This document shows positions 6,428-14,885 of a stretch of DNA of 32,000 nucleotides, in pieces. The position numbers and the translations under genes were made by a program. Below the pieces are notes generated by a model. It had not been told where the DNA came from. It saw nothing but the letters and a program-made list of their open reading frames with translations, and did no database searches. The DNA is from an uncultured archaeon (GTDB lineage: Archaea > Asgardarchaeota > Thorarchaeia > Thorarchaeales > Thorarchaeaceae). The stretch covers positions 120,817 through 152,816 of the forward strand of contig CAYHAA010000006.1 in NCBI GenBank assembly GCA_964354495.1. The letters are read 5' to 3'. The first letter of the stretch is position 1. Every line of letters starts with the position of its first letter.

Positions 6428-6488
6428 CAGGCTTCGAATGCGCACTGTAACTGGCGAAGTGATTCGTCGCATGCATGTGGTGTACACC

Positions 6489-7031
6489 ATGGCTGAAACT
6501 GAAGAACGGACTGGTCCTCCTGTCACACTAATCGACCCCATTGATATGTCGAAACTGGACACAAAGTTTCGAGAGGAAATCAAAAGCATGCCAAATGGCG
6601 AGGAACTGTCGGCCTGTTTTGCGTGTTCGACTTGCACTGCTGCATGTCCAATTGCGAACATATGGAAATACAAGCCACATCAATTGATCCGAATGATGCT
6701 TCTTGGGATGCGCGAAGAGGTTCTCATGTCCAATGAGATATGGCTCTGTCTGACATGTTACCAATGCCAAGAACGGTGCCCTCAGAAGGTCCGTGTGACT
6801 GACATCTTCTTCGATTGCAAGAACTTAGCTGCGGAACAAGGTAAGGTCCCGCCGAAGGTTGTCGCACTTGCCAAGGAACTGCTTACTAAGGGCCAACTGT
6901 ACTCAGTGACTGCAGACTGGGAACGAGAAGACATGGGTCTAGAACCTGCGGTTCCGGGTCTCTCAGTCGAAGCTGTGAAGACTATCCTCGGGGGTACTCG
7001 AATTAGGAAGCTTGCGGGTGGTGAGCAATAA
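6489..7031 (+). CDS. hdrC: Heterodisulfide reductase subunit C-like (2x[4Fe-4S])
   Basis: CFACSTCTAACP and WLCLTCYQCQERCPQKV motifs; ATG 6489 preferred. Confidence 0.92.
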   Translation: MAETEERTGPPVTLIDPIDMSKLDTKFREEIKSMPNGEELSACFACSTCTAACPIANIWKYKPHQLIRMMLLGMREEVLMSNEIWLCLTCYQCQERCPQKVRVTDIFFDCKNLAAEQGKVPPKVVALAKELLTKGQLYSVTADWEREDMGLEPAVPGLSVEAVKTILGGTRIRKLAGGEQ

Positions 7032-7032
7032 G

Positions 7033-7899
7033 ATGCCCGTTTACAATCTTTACATCGGCTGCAGTGTCCCCGTGAACTATCCGAATTATGAGGCTGCCAT
7101 GCATAAAGTAGCTCAGGCTTTCGATATGGAACTTCTGTATATGGATGGAGTAGCGTGCTGTGGAAGTCCAAATCTGAGAGCTATCGACCACCTGGGCTGG
7201 GTAACAGTCAATGCAAGGACCCTTGCAATTGCTGATAAGAATGGTCATGATATTGTCACCCCCTGCAATGGCTGCTTTGGGTCCCTAAAGGAGGTCTATC
7301 ACCTTCTCAAGCATGATGACAAGCTCAGAAACAAGATTAACCAAGGCCTGAAGAAGGAAGGCCTTGAATTCAAGGGAACAACAACACCGCGTCATTTCGT
7401 TGAAGCGCTCTATAATGATATTGGAATTGATGAAATCCGGAAGAAGATCACGAAGCCGCTGGATGGAGTAGGAATAGCGATACATTATGGATGCCATCTT
7501 CTTCGTCCTGTGGATGTCACTGAGTTCAAGCCCGAATATCTTCAAGAACTCGTTGAAGTCACAGGCGCAACAGTAGTAGAGTATCCATTATGGAAGCAGT
7601 GCTGCGGAGCCACCGTGCTACCAGTAGACGAATCTCTAGGAATACGGCTTGCTCGCGACAAGCTGAAATCCATGAAAGAGGCCGGCGCTGTCTTTGCGAC
7701 CGTGGTATGTCCTGCGTGTGGCAATCAATTGGACCTACAACAGCTTGGCCTCAAGGAATCATATGGAGAGGAGTACAGTCTCCCTGTGTTGCTCTATCCC
7801 CAGATACTGGGGTTGGCAATTGGACTTGATGAAGAAGCAGTTGGTCTCAGCATGAATAGGGTTCCTGCTAATCCAATTCTGGACCATCTAGGTAGCTGA
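7033..7899 (+). CDS. hdrB: Heterodisulfide reductase subunit B-like (two CCG domains)
   Basis: YIGC..P, ACCGSP, TPCNGC, HYGCH, QCCGA and VCPAC motifs; ATG 7033 is 1 nt after the hdrC stop. Confidence 0.93.
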   Translation: MPVYNLYIGCSVPVNYPNYEAAMHKVAQAFDMELLYMDGVACCGSPNLRAIDHLGWVTVNARTLAIADKNGHDIVTPCNGCFGSLKEVYHLLKHDDKLRNKINQGLKKEGLEFKGTTTPRHFVEALYNDIGIDEIRKKITKPLDGVGIAIHYGCHLLRPVDVTEFKPEYLQELVEVTGATVVEYPLWKQCCGATVLPVDESLGIRLARDKLKSMKEAGAVFATVVCPACGNQLDLQQLGLKESYGEEYSLPVLLYPQILGLAIGLDEEAVGLSMNRVPANPILDHLGS

Positions 7900-7912: not shown

Positions 7913-9157
7913 ATGTCCAACCCAGTTCTCATAATTGGTGCTGGTGTTGCAGGGATGACAGCAGCAATCGAGCTAGCAGACTCAGGAATCAAGACAGTAC
8001 TTGTCGAAGAACTCTCTACAACTGGTGGAAATGCCCTCGACTTGTACAAGGCCTTCCCCACTGATGATTGTTTCTATTGCTTTGAAGGAAATCGTTGGCG
8101 TCCTGGAATCCGAAAGTGTTTCTACAGAAGTGCATTGGTAGATCAGCCAAACATCGATTTGAAGATGAACAGTCGGGTGGAAGAGATATCCGGCAATCCA
8201 AGCAGTTTTAGCATAGCACTTGCCATTGGGCCACAGTACATTGATCCGATGAGATGCATCTTGTGTGGCCTCTGCCTTGAGAAATCCAAATCCTTCAGTT
8301 TCATATCACCGCAGTGCCAACCACAGGCTGTCATCTACAAGCCTGATTTAAGAGACGAAGGCACTCAGATCGCTGCCAAAGAATGCCCCACACAGGCGAT
8401 CAATCTCGATGCAGAGCCCTCCAAGGAAACAATCACAGTCTCTGATATCATTATAGCCACAGGGTTTCACGAGATGAAACCATCAGAAATTGATGAGTAT
8501 GGCTATGGCACACACCCCAACATAATCACACAGCTTGAGTTGGCCAAGATCTTGGACCCGAACGGTCCTTCTGGAGGCGTGCTTCTACGCCCATCGGACG
8601 GGGCCCCGGCTAGACGAGTGATGATGATTCAATGTGTAGGTAGTAGAGATGAAAACTACTATCCATACTGCTCGAAGATATGCTGCATATTTGCTCTGAA
8701 ACATGCTAATATTCTGACCCGAGAGCGCGAGAATGTACAAGTCAGCGTGGTCTACATGGATATACGAACCTATGACAGATATGAGAGGTACTATCGTGAG
8801 ACCAGGCAGTCGGGCGTAGAATACATAAGAGGACGAGTAACGCGCGTTAATCCCAAAGAAGATGGTAGTCTCGCTGTAGTGGTGTACGATTCTCTCTTGA
8901 ATGCATATCTCCGGTTCTCAGTAGACTTGTTTGTACTGTCCTCTGCATTAGAGCCCTCTGCAGGAAGTGGACACATCATAGAGACTCTCAGACTGAAGTC
9001 TGCTAGCGGATTCATCGGCCCGCTATCTGCTGATGATCCGGTTGTTGTCGGAAATCATATATTTGCCTGTGGCACTGCACTTGGTCCCGCTGAGGTCCCT
9101 GAGAGCGTCACGCAAGCACGAGCTGTTGTTTCCAAGATATTGCAGAGCAGGAAGTGA
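7913..9157 (+). CDS. hdrA: Short HdrA-family flavoprotein (HdrA', QmoA-sized)
   Basis: IIGAGVAG FAD motif, FPTDDCFYC, CILCGLC...CP insert and QCVGSRD...CSKICC; lacks the N-terminal CxCG domain and the C-terminal ferredoxin. Confidence 0.88.
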   Translation: MSNPVLIIGAGVAGMTAAIELADSGIKTVLVEELSTTGGNALDLYKAFPTDDCFYCFEGNRWRPGIRKCFYRSALVDQPNIDLKMNSRVEEISGNPSSFSIALAIGPQYIDPMRCILCGLCLEKSKSFSFISPQCQPQAVIYKPDLRDEGTQIAAKECPTQAINLDAEPSKETITVSDIIIATGFHEMKPSEIDEYGYGTHPNIITQLELAKILDPNGPSGGVLLRPSDGAPARRVMMIQCVGSRDENYYPYCSKICCIFALKHANILTRERENVQVSVVYMDIRTYDRYERYYRETRQSGVEYIRGRVTRVNPKEDGSLAVVVYDSLLNAYLRFSVDLFVLSSALEPSAGSGHIIETLRLKSASGFIGPLSADDPVVVGNHIFACGTALGPAEVPESVTQARAVVSKILQSRK

Positions 9158-9164
9158 TGCCAAG

Positions 9165-11333
9165 ATGAACAATGACAACAAATCAGCAGTCCTCCTATGC
9201 ACCTGCGGAAAGCAACTACAGCTCTCGTTTGGCTTCCTGCAATCTGAGATTGAGAAGATTGACTCAGCTGTTTCGACCACGGTACACGACCAAGCATGTC
9301 AAGAGGAAGGCCTGACCAAGATTGCCGGGCTCTTAAAGGCAAATGGAGGCCGTCTTGTAATTGCAGCATGCACCAGCCAGAAGATTCAGCCCCGCATCAA
9401 CAGATATCTCAGGCAACAGGGGATTGATGGATCCCAGATTCAATATGTCAATATTCGAGAGCATTCCGCTTGGGTACACCGCGATGTTACGAAAGCAAGC
9501 AAGAAGTCTCTCGACATGATTCGTGGAACGCTTGCGAGGTCAAAGAGCTCAGTACCTCTCCTAATAGAGAGCAAAGAAGTCAGTAGACATGTGACAGTGA
9601 TAGGTGGTGGAATTGCTGGTATCGAGTCTGCATTAAGCCTCTCAAATCTTGGCTATGAAGTGGCCTTGCTTGAATGCAGCGATTGTCTTGGTGGTCATCT
9701 TCTACATCTTCCAATGGTTGCTCCCTCTGGTAAATCTGGCATGGAAGTCCTGAGCGGAAGGCTCGAAGCTATTGAGAGTAATACTAGCATCACTGTGATG
9801 ACAAAAACCTCGGTCAAATATGTGACTGGGGAAATGGGTGACTTTACTGTAAAGTATGTCACAGAAGGCGATGATGAGAAGTCTATTAGGACCTCGGCTG
9901 TGGTCCTTGCAATGGGCTTCAAGGAATTTGAGCCAATTGGGATGAATGAGTACAGGTACGGGAGGAATCCCGATGTGATAACCCAGTTTCAGCTTTCCCG
10001 TATGCTCTCCGAGGGTGTTCTTGGCAGGCCATCTGATAACAGTCCCATCAAGGAGGTTGTTATGGTCCAGTGCGTAGGAAGCAGGTCCGAAGACTACAAA
10101 CGTGACTGCAGCAAACTCTGCTGCACTTTTGCCATTGACAACTCCTTGGAACTCATGAAACGGATACCTGATGTCACTGTTCACATTGTATACATTGACA
10201 TTCGAGTACCCTTTGAGAATGAGATGGTCTACAAGGAATCTCGTGATAAGGGAGTAGACTATATCCGCGGGCGGATTAGTATGGTCTGGGAGCATGATGG
10301 CAAGACCCATGTCAGAATCTATGACTCTCTGATGGACCAGTATCTAGAAGTTCCTGCTGACTTGCTTGTTCTCGCGACTGCAATACTTCCTCCTGATGGA
10401 GTTGTAGAGCTGTCTGAAACCCTTGGCTATGCAGTTGAAGATGATGGACATGTAAAGGAACTCTACGGTAAACTTAGACGCAACGAGACTCGTCGGCGTG
10501 GAGTTATTGCTGTCGGAGGAGTCACGCGCCCACAGTTTGTGTCTGAAGCCATCATAGATGCTCAAGCTGGAGCTCTCATGGTCCACAATGAGCTACACGG
10601 TGGAGCGATTGAATCAGTCGCACGTGGATCCGTTCTTGACGTTGATGACTGTGTTGGATGTAGTCTCTGTGCCCAACAGTGTCCTCGTGGAGTCCCACTC
10701 ATGATTGAACAGACCGAAGCAGAAGAATCTGATGAAGAGCAAAAGATTCTCTTCAAGGCTGCACTTGATACTCTGAATTGCCATGCATGTGGGGTGTGTC
10801 AGAGCCTATGTCCATCTGGGGCCATTCAGCTTAATTTTCTCTCCAACGAACAATTGTGGTCCGAGATAGCTGCAGTACTTCAGGATGCAGGCCCAGAGGA
10901 TCCGATTACGCTATGTTTCTATTGCGAAGAATGTTCGGTATCGACAATAGATATTGTTGGAACTAGGAGAATGGAATACCCTACTAATACACGCCTGATT
11001 CCAGTTCCCTGTGCCGGTCGTGTGAGTATCATAGACATTCTCAAGGCTTTCGAACATGGTACTAGCACGGTCATGATTGCAGCATGCGAGAAGGACCGTT
11101 GTCATATTGGGGGGACTGGCAATGAGATTGCTCAGGTACAAGTAGATGTTGCTCGAGACATTCTGAATGCCATTGGTTGGAGGGGAGAACGTGTAGACAT
11201 GTTCAGAATGTTCAGCGCAGAACCTGAACGCTTTACCAAAGCTGTCAATGAGATGGTAAGGCGTGCCAAGGATTTGGGCCCTACGCCTGTCCATGAGGGA
11301 ACTGCTGGCAAGTGGAAGGAGGTGAGCAAGTGA
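9165..11333 (+). CDS. hdrA: HdrA-MvhD fusion flavoprotein (QmoB-like architecture)
   Basis: N-terminal LLCTCG...AC...AACT, VIGGGIAG, QCVGSRS...CSKLCC, two CxxCxxCxxxCP motifs, then an MvhD domain (CFYCEEC, PCAGRV, AACEKDRC). ATG 9165 preferred. Confidence 0.9.
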   Translation: MNNDNKSAVLLCTCGKQLQLSFGFLQSEIEKIDSAVSTTVHDQACQEEGLTKIAGLLKANGGRLVIAACTSQKIQPRINRYLRQQGIDGSQIQYVNIREHSAWVHRDVTKASKKSLDMIRGTLARSKSSVPLLIESKEVSRHVTVIGGGIAGIESALSLSNLGYEVALLECSDCLGGHLLHLPMVAPSGKSGMEVLSGRLEAIESNTSITVMTKTSVKYVTGEMGDFTVKYVTEGDDEKSIRTSAVVLAMGFKEFEPIGMNEYRYGRNPDVITQFQLSRMLSEGVLGRPSDNSPIKEVVMVQCVGSRSEDYKRDCSKLCCTFAIDNSLELMKRIPDVTVHIVYIDIRVPFENEMVYKESRDKGVDYIRGRISMVWEHDGKTHVRIYDSLMDQYLEVPADLLVLATAILPPDGVVELSETLGYAVEDDGHVKELYGKLRRNETRRRGVIAVGGVTRPQFVSEAIIDAQAGALMVHNELHGGAIESVARGSVLDVDDCVGCSLCAQQCPRGVPLMIEQTEAEESDEEQKILFKAALDTLNCHACGVCQSLCPSGAIQLNFLSNEQLWSEIAAVLQDAGPEDPITLCFYCEECSVSTIDIVGTRRMEYPTNTRLIPVPCAGRVSIIDILKAFEHGTSTVMIAACEKDRCHIGGTGNEIAQVQVDVARDILNAIGWRGERVDMFRMFSAEPERFTKAVNEMVRRAKDLGPTPVHEGTAGKWKEVSK

Positions 11334-13594
11334 GTCAATCAACACCTGAGAAGGCTATTGCACCCAAGAGACAACGAATGTTGGACATGGTATTAGCACT
11401 AGGTGGCCTCAAAGAAGAGTCCACAATTCCCCTCAGCAAAGTCAAGGATGAACTTGAGAATCTAAAGGCAGAGCTTGCACCCCTGACTGACACAATCATA
11501 TCCTTTCCCGATTCCTATTTTGAGAAATTCTTGGATACTGCAAAGAAGAGCAACATTGTTGCTGAGATAAGCGATCGAGGCATTCTGAAGGAGTCAATCT
11601 CGAATCTTGATCAGGCCCTGTCAAAAGGTGAATCTGTGCCACTAAAGGCGCTGAATAGAATACTTACAGACACACTCAGCAGAATGACTGAGGTAGAGGC
11701 GCGTCAAGACGTCAGTGTAGATGTCGATATGACTGCAACCACCTCGACCATATCGGGTCTGGTTTCTGAAATCGAGTCAATCACAGATGGTTTCGAGAAA
11801 GCCGCTGAAACAGAGGCTGAGTCTGCTAGGTCTGAATTGGTCGCGCTCGTCGAATATCTTGAAAGAGTCAAAGAAAAGGTCGAAACAGATCCTGACACAG
11901 CTCTAGATGAGCTTCAAAAGTTAGGGTCCCAGACTCGTTACGGTCCTGGACTAAGAGCAATAGCACAAGTAAAACGAGGGAAGCGAGAAGGTCGAATCGA
12001 TGATGCACGGTTCAACAAGATAGTCAGAGAAAATATACTCACCGAGGTCAACCGTGGAATAATCCTGTTCATACTCAATAAGATGGGATCCAAGACAGTC
12101 GTACAGGCCGGGGAGCTCATGCAGACCTCTCCTCAGGCTATACAGAGCGCTCTTGTGACTATGATTCAGAGGGGAGAGGTTGAGATGGTCGGTCTTGATG
12201 GTGATGCTCCTGTCTTCTCAAGGGTGCTCACAGAAACACCCAGCTCAACACTCCTCATGAAAAGGATTGTTCAACAGGTTCGGGGGATGGTAAAATCATT
12301 AGAAGGCGAAACCGCTGAAACTATGAATGAGTTACTTGGCAAGTTACAAGTACTACTCAAACGCCTCCAGATACTTGGAGCCTACAACGAGACTCTCCTA
12401 TCTGAGCGTATCAACAAGCTTCGAGAGACTGTTGATAGTGTCACCGAGGCAGTACTCGGCGCTCAGACTTCCGAGGATGCTGAGAATCTCAGGCTTCTCA
12501 TATCTGCAGGACTTGAAGCGTTCGCCCGCTTTCGTCTTAAAATAGCCCTAGAAAAGGGTCCTGCCCTTGTTTCAGGTGGTAATGTCTATGGTGAAAAACT
12601 AGACTCTGAAGTCTACAAAACCATAATGGACACCTATCTTGATAATGAGCTTGAGAGAGGCACAATCTTGATTCTCATTCGGGAATTGGGAGCTCTCACA
12701 GCACATGATCTGGCAGAGAGGACGAATATTCCACCAGATAGAATACTCAGACATCTACTCAGAATGAAGCGCGATGAACTTCTCACAATTGCTGGTGAGA
12801 ATCATGGGTATATTCTCTATGATGTTCCGAGGGCTCTTTCAGAGGCTGAGATCACAATACAGACTATAAGTAGTCTAGCTCTACAACTGTCTGAGGCCAA
12901 ACAAGAGCTTCAGAGGATACTGAGCGATCTGAAAGCGTCCGATATCGGCAGACTTGCCAACTCATTAGAAGTCTTTTCAAAGTCACGTGACAAGCTCGCA
13001 TCAGTCCGTGTTCATGGTGCTGCAATTGATGAATCCACCTTGAAAGATGTAGAGGATAAGATACGGTCTGCGGTTCTACTCACCTATCGGACACGTGCTA
13101 AGATTCCAAGCACCAGACCAAAGGTGACCCTTGAGGATCTATTGGATGTTGATGTGCCATCTGTTCTTGACGAGTACAGAAGCCTAATGGGTTATGCACC
13201 TCTTCTGGGGTTTGGAACAATAGAGTGGGAACAATCAAGGTGCCTCGGTTGCAGGTCATGTGAAATTGCCTGCCCAGAAGATGCGATTGAACTGAAGCCA
13301 CGAATAGGGATACACCGATTCTTCGAGATATCCGATGATGCGCTCTCCCAATTGCCATCAAACCGGTCACTGTTCTATAGGACCATTCAGAATCTCGCTA
13401 CGATAAAGCCAGTAGAAGAGATTCCCCTTGAAAAGGAAGTTCCAGGATTCGGCACAGTAGAGGTGGACCTCTGGCTATGCGTTGCTTGCCGTATGTGTGT
13501 AAGACGATGTCCAGGTCCTGAAGGTGGAGCATTGGAGCTGGAGCTGAAATGGAGCTTGCCAGAAATAGTGAAGCACATCACGTCAACTTCATAG
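11330..13594 (+). CDS. Large hypothetical Fe-S protein: helical regions, two winged-helix-like modules, C-terminal 2x[4Fe-4S] ferredoxin domain
   Basis: GTG 11330 overlaps the upstream TGA; CLGCRSCEIACP and CVACRMCVRRCP motifs; wHTH-like segments at ~12040-12210 and ~12650-12830. Confidence 0.8.
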   Translation: MSQSTPEKAIAPKRQRMLDMVLALGGLKEESTIPLSKVKDELENLKAELAPLTDTIISFPDSYFEKFLDTAKKSNIVAEISDRGILKESISNLDQALSKGESVPLKALNRILTDTLSRMTEVEARQDVSVDVDMTATTSTISGLVSEIESITDGFEKAAETEAESARSELVALVEYLERVKEKVETDPDTALDELQKLGSQTRYGPGLRAIAQVKRGKREGRIDDARFNKIVRENILTEVNRGIILFILNKMGSKTVVQAGELMQTSPQAIQSALVTMIQRGEVEMVGLDGDAPVFSRVLTETPSSTLLMKRIVQQVRGMVKSLEGETAETMNELLGKLQVLLKRLQILGAYNETLLSERINKLRETVDSVTEAVLGAQTSEDAENLRLLISAGLEAFARFRLKIALEKGPALVSGGNVYGEKLDSEVYKTIMDTYLDNELERGTILILIRELGALTAHDLAERTNIPPDRILRHLLRMKRDELLTIAGENHGYILYDVPRALSEAEITIQTISSLALQLSEAKQELQRILSDLKASDIGRLANSLEVFSKSRDKLASVRVHGAAIDESTLKDVEDKIRSAVLLTYRTRAKIPSTRPKVTLEDLLDVDVPSVLDEYRSLMGYAPLLGFGTIEWEQSRCLGCRSCEIACPEDAIELKPRIGIHRFFEISDDALSQLPSNRSLFYRTIQNLATIKPVEEIPLEKEVPGFGTVEVDLWLCVACRMCVRRCPGPEGGALELELKWSLPEIVKHITSTS

Positions 13595-13685: not shown

Positions 13686-14885
13686 ATGGTCGATTTCAAC
13701 CTATCCAATGAACAGCTGGAGCTAAGGAACAAGGCGAGAGCGTTTGCACAGGAGTATATGATTCCGTATGCACACTACTATGACAAGACTGGGAAGTTTC
13801 CACGTCCCATAATCAAGAAGTGTTGGGACGAAGGGCTCATGAACCTTTCAATCCCAAGAGAGTATGGGGGACAGGGTCTAGGTTCAATCGAAGAATGCGT
13901 CACGGTAGAGGAAATGGCTGCCGGCTGCGCAGGGATGACAACAAGCATCTACGTTAACTCTCTAGGAGCTGAGCCGATTCTGGTGGCGGGCACTTCCGAA
14001 CAGAAGGAGAAATACCTTCGACCACTCACTGAAGACCTCAAGTTCATCAGTTTCGCTTGTTCTGAACCAGGAATGGGTTCTGATGTCGCCGGGATTCAGA
14101 CCCAGGTCAAACGAGAAGGCGACGTCTATGTCTTGAATGGATCCAAGTTCTGGATCACCAACGCTCCACAGGCAGACACCTTCACAGTCTTTGCTAGTCT
14201 TGATCCGAGTAAGAGACACAAAGCATTATGCGCGTTCATCGTTGATGCTACCACTCCGGGAGTGAAGACTGGCAGGCCAGTTGAGAAAATGGGTCATAGG
14301 GCCTCCACAACGTCAGCAGTGATGTTCAAAGATGCTAAGGTCCCTGTCGAAAACCTGTTGGGCGCCGAAGGAGAAGGATTCAAGATAGCGATGAAGACAT
14401 TCGCAAAGACACGCCCCTCAATCGCTGCATTTGCTACTGGCCTTGCTCGATCAGCGATGGAATATGCTCGTGACTATGTGAGTAAGAGGGATGCCTTTGG
14501 CGAGAAACTCCACAACTTTGAGGCCATTCAGTTCAAGCTTGCTGAGATGTATATGAAGATTGAAGCAGCACGACTGCTCTACCTCAAGGCTGCTTGGACG
14601 GCGGATTTCGTTGGTGATTCTACTATTCCTGCAAGTGTTGCAAAGGCATTTGCTACAGATGCTGCAATGGAAATAGCCAGTGAAGTTGTCCAGATTCACG
14701 GGGGTTATGGATACATAGATCAGTACCCTGTGGAGAAGCTGTTTCGGGATGCAAAACTGTACCAAATCTATGAGGGAACGAGTGAGGTTCAACGATTGAT
14801 ACTCTCCCGTTATCTTCTCAGCGGATATGAACCTGCGATGGGCAAAATCCCACGTTGGTATAGCAATGAGCCGCCAGATTTGTAA
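13686..14885 (+). CDS. Acyl-CoA dehydrogenase (short/medium-chain type)
   Basis: SEPGMGSDV, LNGSKFWITNA, GEKLHNFEAIQFKLAEM, HGGYGY and IYEGTSEVQ (C-terminal catalytic Glu). Confidence 0.95.
   Translation: MVDFNLSNEQLELRNKARAFAQEYMIPYAHYYDKTGKFPRPIIKKCWDEGLMNLSIPREYGGQGLGSIEECVTVEEMAAGCAGMTTSIYVNSLGAEPILVAGTSEQKEKYLRPLTEDLKFISFACSEPGMGSDVAGIQTQVKREGDVYVLNGSKFWITNAPQADTFTVFASLDPSKRHKALCAFIVDATTPGVKTGRPVEKMGHRASTTSAVMFKDAKVPVENLLGAEGEGFKIAMKTFAKTRPSIAAFATGLARSAMEYARDYVSKRDAFGEKLHNFEAIQFKLAEMYMKIEAARLLYLKAAWTADFVGDSTIPASVAKAFATDAAMEIASEVVQIHGGYGYIDQYPVEKLFRDAKLYQIYEGTSEVQRLILSRYLLSGYEPAMGKIPRWYSNEPPDL

Follow-up and report, generated by a model that had tools for sequence, protein, structure and literature searches.

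The 32,000-nucleotide (nt) stretch of DNA analysed here (the window; positions 120,817 to 152,816 of contig CAYHAA010000006.1, assembly GCA_964354495.1, from an uncultured archaeon of the Thorarchaeota) contains an operon for an Hdr-type complex, the fifth gene of which encodes a protein of 754 amino acids (aa). We found that this gene is conserved and intact, and that its uncharacterized product has an Asgard-restricted architecture in which two winged-helix modules related to the C-terminal tails of long MvhD adaptors are embedded in long helices and followed by a ferredoxin domain. The protein is probably an accessory Fe–S adaptor subunit of a soluble Hdr-type complex, with winged helices that would dock partner proteins rather than DNA. 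A sequence-only reading of the window had proposed either a fifth Hdr subunit or a redox-sensing DNA-binding protein and had regarded the gene as its best candidate for an undescribed system; in keeping with the last point, we found no paper describing the protein family in the literature searched. The sequence features of the protein are far beyond chance.

The protein joins two winged-helix modules to a ferredoxin domain

The gene and the parts of its product are laid out in the window as follows.

11318–11325, + strand: Shine–Dalgarno-like sequence GGAGGTGA, 4 nt 5′ of the GTG start (direct reading of the sequence)
11330–13594, + strand: gene of the 754-aa protein, 754 codons plus stop (list of open reading frames (ORFs), translation; 100% match to a catalogued 754-aa protein)
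11330–11944, + strand: N-terminal helical region, residues 1–205, retained in all architectural variants (alignment and model)
11945–12244, + strand: module 1 core, residues 206–305, with an RYGPG...GRIDD linker, a long helix and winged helix 1 (residues 225–300) (model and hhalign)
12245–12454, + strand: helical linker of module 2, residues 306–375 (model and hhalign)
12455–12844, + strand: module 2 core, residues 376–505, with two helices, the GNVYGE loop (nt 12578–12595), a long helix and winged helix 2 (phmmer, hhalign and model)
12845–13114, + strand: three long helices, residues 506–595 (505–591 in the model)
13115–13207, + strand: low-confidence (disordered) linker, residues 596–626 (pLDDT below 50 at 595–628)
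13208–13591, + strand: 2×[4Fe–4S] ferredoxin domain, residues 627–754, with a 68-residue insert (translation, Pfam and alignment)
13241–13276, + strand: ferredoxin Cys motif 1, C638..P649 (translation)
13478–13513, + strand: ferredoxin Cys motif 2, C717..P728 (translation)

The GTG start at 11330 overlaps the TGA stop codon (11331–11333) of the upstream hdrA::mvhD gene by 4 nt (GTGA), as the sequence-only reading had pointed out; as hdrA::mvhD is a structural gene, this overlap suggests that the two products are made together in stoichiometric amounts. An alternative GTG at 11312 gives a protein of 760 aa, and both starts are used in the gene calls of homologs.

The C-terminal part contains two copies of the motif GFGT-x7-CxxCxxCxxxCP (G627..P649; G706..P728), 68 residues separating C648 from C717, which bears out the duplicated ferredoxin unit with a long spacer that had been read from the sequence. 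The eight cysteines (C638/641/644/648-P and C717/720/723/727-P) are predicted to ligate two [4Fe–4S] clusters, and the Pfam Fer4_7 match (37.7 bits) clears its cut-off of 27. An alignment of 24 homologs reaching down to 19% identity shows no substitution at any of the eight cluster cysteines or in the two GFG motifs, nor in an LP motif within the 68-residue insert or a K13 R14 pair in the N-terminal peptide; a few residues of module 2 are kept as well.

The two modules are homologous to each other (hhalign of residues 132–305 against 305–505: probability 98.6%, E 6e-16, 164 columns). Module 1 carries EVNRGIILFILNKMGSKTV at residues 238–256 and module 2 carries ELERGTILILIRELGALTA at residues 438–456, preceded by GNVYGE at residues 417–422. 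In the AlphaFold2 model of the full protein, built from the 24-homolog alignment, the chain is almost all-helical (>70% helix; pLDDT 75.6) and both modules end in a winged helix of the form H-H-H-strand-strand, at residues 225–299 and 426–498; residues 376–505 folded alone with a diverse alignment gave a pLDDT of 90.3 and a pTM of 0.81. Structure prediction thus upholds the long helical stretches and the two similar helix plus winged-helix modules of the earlier reading.

Searches for relatives of known structure returned generic resemblances. By sequence, the full protein matched only generic Fer4 proteins (PsaC and others) among solved structures, and residues 370–510 matched nothing there, no chain of a long MvhD adaptor or of BamF being present in that copy of the PDB. 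An ESM Atlas feature search limited the matches of the whole protein to its own Thorarchaeota cluster and gave no usable match for residues 1–205, which therefore have no recognizable relatives in that search. The best structural matches of the module 2 model were a MarR-like archaeal protein (VIA-align Z 9.1), TrmBL2 (8.7) and the extended winged helix of RPC62 (8.1, within the generic winged-helix range); as no single match stands out, module 2 is best described as a winged helix of generic type that is extended by helices at its N-terminus. With the full-length model, the top Foldseek matches were RPC62/RPC82 (RPC3) and TFE-alpha (E 4.6e-4 in PDB and 4e-4 in AFDB), which likewise string several winged helices along helical linkers. 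These and the MarR-like Foldseek matches were taken as generic multi-winged-helix resemblance, with TM-scores of 0.08–0.16 (0.08–0.12 over the tandem winged-helix array of RPC62/RPC82); the RPC62/RPC82 and TFE-alpha matches share 10–13% identity with the 754-aa protein, and there is no transcription-related gene context at its locus.

The helical content, the long helices and the weak likeness to the scaffold subunits RPC62/RPC82 are what would be expected of a non-catalytic assembly or oligomerization scaffold, whose helices and winged helices would order Hdr protomers and whose ferredoxin would be structural or peripheral. We consider this very unlikely, because the invariance of the cluster cysteines, the GFG motifs and the LP motif of the insert down to 19% identity argues for a functional redox domain, and because in variants of the protein (below) the same chain has acquired additional domains for redox cofactors.

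Both halves of the protein recur with MvhD

In solved Mvh–Hdr complexes (PDB 5odc family), HdrA receives its electrons from the [2Fe–2S] adaptor MvhD. An exhaustive, profile-free phmmer search of 1.8 billion representative proteins (E ≤ 0.001) linked the winged-helix modules to this adaptor. Residues 350–500 matched proteins of 170–340 aa (P0165–P0198) that consist of an N-terminal Pfam FlpD/MvhD domain, in some cases with Fer4, and a C-terminal tail of about 110 aa; the matches of residues 376–505 to these tails had E values of 1.7e-7 to 1e-4. Aligned as profiles, module 2 matched the long-MvhD tails together with stand-alone homologs at 99.7% probability (hhalign, E 2.6e-27), and module 1 matched the same long-MvhD tails at 98.4%. 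Module 2 and the tails have in common an FRLR..GK helix, the GNVYGE(K) loop and the winged helix, which confirms the GNxYGE plus winged-helix tail on extended MvhD proteins to which the sequence-only reading had pointed. Module 1 (KREGRIDD) and the homologs from Helarchaeota and Lokiarchaeota have a degenerate version of the loop. Judged from these alignments, module 1 is a second, more diverged copy of the long-MvhD tail module. Pfam found no FlpD domain in the 754-aa protein itself; MvhD is instead fused to the upstream HdrA.

The ferredoxin half shows the same association. The ferredoxin domain with its insert matches the C-terminal half of an MvhD plus ferredoxin fusion (P0164), and a shorter relative of 449 aa, which combines a single winged-helix module with helices and this ferredoxin domain (25% identity over residues 390–747), is encoded directly after a stand-alone mvhD, which itself follows a gene for a 966-aa HdrA-like protein. 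Taken together, the tail, fusion and 449-aa matches show that both halves of the 754-aa protein are repeatedly fused or adjacent to MvhD.

Module 2 also has stand-alone homologs of about 115 aa that bear an ArsR-like annotation (L005:1446-1793, L006:1477-1827 and L007:102-452). Two of them are encoded between genes for a polyferredoxin and NiFe-hydrogenase subunits, and these small proteins are probably adaptors rather than regulators. A contact role for such a domain has a precedent in BamF of class II benzoyl-CoA reductase, the described example of a long MvhD adaptor, in which a cryo-EM preprint reports a winged-helix motif contacting another Fe–S subunit, BamI (10.64898/2026.04.10.717634). 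The long MvhD adaptors resemble the modules described here in the homology of their tails and in their occurrence in HdrA-type operons. They differ in that the module of the 754-aa protein is detached from MvhD, duplicated, embedded in long helices and joined to a 2×[4Fe–4S] ferredoxin on a separate chain.

The gene is tied to hdrA::mvhD across Asgard lineages

In the window, the gene stands among the following neighbours.

6438–7031, + strand: hdrC (ORF list, domain matches)
7012–7899, + strand: hdrB (ORF list, domain matches)
7913–9157, + strand: short HdrA-type flavoprotein, 414 aa, its ferredoxin insert reduced to a single cluster (domain matches)
9165–11333, + strand: hdrA::mvhD fusion, 722 aa, the proposed direct partner of the 754-aa protein (Pfam FlpD at the C-terminus)
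13686–14885, + strand: acyl-CoA dehydrogenase gene, after a 91-nt gap (ORF list, domain matches)

Genes for a primase and for GINS lie upstream of the hdr operon. For hdrA::mvhD, the start MNNDNKSAVLLCTCGK and comparison with orthologs point to ATG 9165 as the likely initiation site; the start of the longest ORF, at 9033, which would overlap the short hdrA by 125 nt, was rejected on the basis of the orthologs and the preceding stop.

More than 100 Thorarchaeota sequences of the 754-aa protein are 70–89% identical to it, and near-identical proteins are named as Thorarchaeota-type Asgard in the source databases. Beyond these the family is small: the phmmer search returned only 79 proteins, including full-length homologs of 734–747 aa with 22–26% identity that carry the source names Helarchaeota or Lokiarchaeota. 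Among 301 genomes sampled from the phylum, all those of the Thorarchaeota family to which the window belongs (76/76) had the gene and full-length copies occurred in two further families, the remaining families giving partial single-domain matches only.

Gene order is conserved as well. The arrangement primS–gins–hdrC–hdrB–short hdrA–hdrA::mvhD–754-aa gene–acyl-CoA dehydrogenase recurs, sometimes minus a flanking gene, in 15 uninterrupted loci from other genera of the family, and in these the start of the gene overlaps the hdrA::mvhD stop or lies within about 25 nt of it. The loci of Helarchaeota and Lokiarchaeota, whose homologs of the protein are 20–26% identical, have the order short hdrA–hdrA::mvhD–754-aa gene–hdrC–hdrB; because the gene stands between hdrA::mvhD and hdrC there, the trio of short hdrA, hdrA::mvhD and the 754-aa gene survives the relocation of hdrCB. 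One apparent case of the gene without an adjacent hdrA (G242, locus L043) proved to be a scaffold gap, with a run of N directly after the end of the MvhD-coding sequence, and is no counterexample. The link to hdr and mvhD genes on which the sequence-only reading depended is thus kept throughout the family and in Helarchaeota and Lokiarchaeota.

Some variants contain a NAD(P)H-oxidoreductase module

At the orthologous locus, seven genomes of the family carry variant alleles with an NfnB/GltD-type NAD(P)H–FAD–2×[4Fe–4S] module.

L044, 7945–10887, together with P0123, L045 and L054–L057: forms of 972–998 aa (same locus in sister genomes)

In the 972–998-aa forms, found in six genomes, the module replaces residues ~205–417 of the 754-aa protein: variant residues 1–162 align to its residues 1–205, and 636–972 align to its residues 418–754 with 62% identity. 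In the seventh genome (G182, L049:3-3329), the module is inserted after residue ~205 and module 1 and the rest are kept, giving a protein of at least 1109 aa whose ORF runs off the contig. The inserted module comprises Pfam Fer4_20 and Pyr_redox_2, is glutamate-synthase-small-subunit-like in NCBIfam, and matches solved chains of Nfn, GltD and related proteins with E values of 1e-88 to 1e-120; neither Pfam domain was found in the 754-aa protein of the window. When the tree is built from the C-terminal part, variants of two genera group together (support 100/99); in a tree of the adjacent hdrA::mvhD the variant genomes group with different relatives. This discordance may reflect lateral replacement of the variant allele.

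A NAD(P)H–FAD–[4Fe–4S] unit within the same protein is hard to square with a transcription factor and is expected if the protein is an electron-input arm of the complex. As to the direction of electron flow, the variants with a NAD(P)H module tip the balance slightly towards entry over exit.

Elsewhere in the genome of the window (G000:C14:30712-32139; L052:997-3774) is a gene for a 925-aa HdrL-like protein, made of an HdrA-type part and an NfnB/GltD-type module, followed by an hdrC-like gene. Its NfnB/GltD-type module is 52% identical to the one inserted in the variants.

A probable adaptor subunit of the Hdr complex

On the adaptor reading, the complex would consist of HdrC, HdrB, the short HdrA, HdrA::MvhD and the 754-aa protein. 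The ferredoxin domain of the last would dock near the MvhD [2Fe–2S] cluster of HdrA::MvhD and relay electrons between a donor and the HdrA flavin, to or from MvhD. The MvhD-tail-type modules and the helical regions would act as docking elements and scaffold that hold the ferredoxin domain on the complex, and the modules would offer a socket that recruits the physiological electron donor. With the 754-aa form this donor would act in trans; in the variant genomes it would be the NfnB-type NAD(P)H module, supplied in cis at the position of module 1. The fifth subunit of the sequence-only reading is thus favoured by genetic linkage, by domain fusions with MvhD and by the NfnB-insertion variants. 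Physical binding within the complex, cluster occupancy, the direction of electron flow and the nature of the donor are inferred.

Several observations weigh against the adaptor reading. The fold of module 2 is closest to DNA-binding regulators (MarR/TrmB, Z about 9), Pfam MarR_2 scores exactly at its cut-off (27.2 versus 27), and recognition helix 2 is basic in Thorarchaeota (RxxRHxxRxKR). The domain packing of the full-length model is uncertain (pTM 0.41), and the BamF precedent is tied to the module by the wording of the preprint alone. The one-cluster insert of the short HdrA would suit an electron exit role equally well. A predicted complex of the short HdrA, the C-terminal ferredoxin/MvhD part of HdrA and residues 500–754 of the protein counts neither for nor against the reading, as a control with chain 1 replaced and the partner kept scored almost the same as the real complex.

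The winged-helix features could belong to a redox-sensing transcription factor, in which the Fe–S domain would respond to redox conditions in the Hdr complex or the cell and regulation of the operon would be exerted by the winged helices, bound to DNA. Both winged-helix folds are genuine and the weak Pfam matches are of the corresponding kind, with no single stretch passing alone for MarR_2 and with scores of 18.7 against 21.9 for HTH_24 and 17.3 against 30 for Rrf2. The surfaces of these folds speak against it: in all but three of the 24 homologs, net charge ranges from 0 to −7 for the winged helices and from −1 to −4 for the wings; the whole protein has a net charge of −18 to −36 in Thorarchaeota; recognition helix 1 lacks a conserved basic residue; helix 2 is basic in Thorarchaeota alone; and the candidate recognition residues vary in the Helarchaeota and Lokiarchaeota homologs. 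Furthermore, the same module is the tail of MvhD adaptors or sits in hydrogenase clusters, the variants can dispense with winged helix 1 or have an oxidoreductase module in its place, and the gene is joined by its 4-nt start/stop overlap to structural hdrA::mvhD. The computed charges and profiles give DNA binding no support, and we regard a regulatory role, the second proposal of the sequence-only reading, as highly improbable.

The main rival is a low-potential exit, the role in which the sequence-only reading had also cast a fifth subunit alongside that of a scaffold. Here the ferredoxin domain would dock on the short HdrA, replace the missing second cluster of its insert in trans and pass bifurcated electrons to an acceptor in the manner of MvhB or FmdF. 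The insert of the short HdrA indeed has one CxxCxxC...CP cluster motif only (C115, C118, C121 and C158), and the polyferredoxins MvhB and FmdF dock on the ferredoxin insert of HdrA in solved methanogen supercomplexes (PMC13580544). The fusion partner of both domains of the 754-aa protein is MvhD rather than an HdrA insert, and the gene is paired with hdrA::mvhD, that of the 449-aa relative with a stand-alone mvhD; in addition, the variants have in their NfnB-type NAD(P)H module a mid-potential unit of the donor type, which would be better placed on the input side. An exit role is therefore unlikely, and we favour the adaptor that docks at MvhD.

A tentative extension of the adaptor reading is that the protein represents a new class of modular socket subunits in Asgard bifurcating Hdr complexes, in which exchangeable winged helices of the MvhD-tail type choose the donor that feeds MvhD/HdrA by way of the ferredoxin. 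In some species this donor could be NAD(P)H, by means of the built-in NfnB module, and in others a hydrogenase, ETF/acyl-CoA dehydrogenase or ferredoxin acting in trans. If true, it would account for the ability of a single, conserved Hdr core to work with different catabolic inputs in the archaea most closely related to eukaryotes.

Relation to known systems

The architecture is best filed as a variation on the Fe–S adaptor subunits of HdrA/MvhD bifurcating complexes. Like the 754-aa protein, the polyferredoxins MvhB and FmdF have clostridial-type [4Fe–4S] modules, are encoded with Hdr/Mvh genes and wire HdrA to a partner (PMC13580544). They have three to seven such modules, whereas the 754-aa protein has one, with a 68-residue insert, and about 80% of it is a helical and winged-helix scaffold outside the Fe–S domain; no sequence relationship between the two was detected beyond the Fer4 motif.

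FlxABCD–HdrABC of Desulfovibrio is a NAD(P)H-linked Hdr system. Such systems resemble the variants of 972–998 aa and at least 1109 aa in having an NfnB/GltD-type module beside MvhD/HdrA. The 754-aa protein itself differs from them in having no flavin or NAD(P)H domain, and in the variants the module resides in the adaptor, not in HdrA. The QmoAB (plus HdrCB) system of sulfate reducers is like this operon, by domain matches, in its short, FAD-only HdrA paralog, its long HdrA with a C-terminal MvhD-like domain and its HdrCB, and the one-cluster insert of the short HdrA suggests an asymmetric HdrA heterodimer resembling QmoA/QmoB. Unlike the Qmo system, the window has no aprAB or sat genes; the literature searched describes no counterpart of the 754-aa protein for Qmo.

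Hdr-type bifurcating complexes hold a central place in the syntrophic metabolism, with release of hydrogen or electrons, that has been proposed for Asgard archaea. The Thorarchaeota operon has no hydrogenase or formate dehydrogenase gene, and a conserved fifth subunit that combines a ferredoxin with MvhD-type docking modules is the natural starting point in the search for its electron donor. The variants with a built-in NAD(P)H module lead to a concrete hypothesis, namely NAD(P)H-dependent bifurcation or confurcation. More generally, the use of winged helix-turn-helix domains as structural connectors in Hdr, Mvh and Bam systems is an emerging point that the 754-aa protein would generalize. The family is labelled '4Fe-4S dicluster domain-containing protein' or 'ferredoxin/MarR family transcriptional regulator' in databases; given winged helices that would serve as connectors, labels of the latter kind are probably misleading.

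Neighbouring genes in the Asgard loci

The acyl-CoA dehydrogenase gene follows the 754-aa gene directly in nearly every fetched Thorarchaeota locus and does not do so in Helarchaeota and Lokiarchaeota. It may hint at the pathway that the complex serves.

The operons of Helarchaeota and Lokiarchaeota (L001:1-3487 and L003:1-3889) are preceded by two giant double-HdrA genes (products of 1017–1168 aa), mvhD and a conserved 93-aa ORF, all of which are missing from the Thorarchaeota loci. The mvhD upstream of the homologous operon in Helarchaeota (L001:3524-3907) was called as two fragments, and reading its TGA as U joins them into one MvhD of 127 residues. With U in the conserved G-C/U-H-x-G-D-C motif, this MvhD is, as read from its sequence, probably a selenoprotein.

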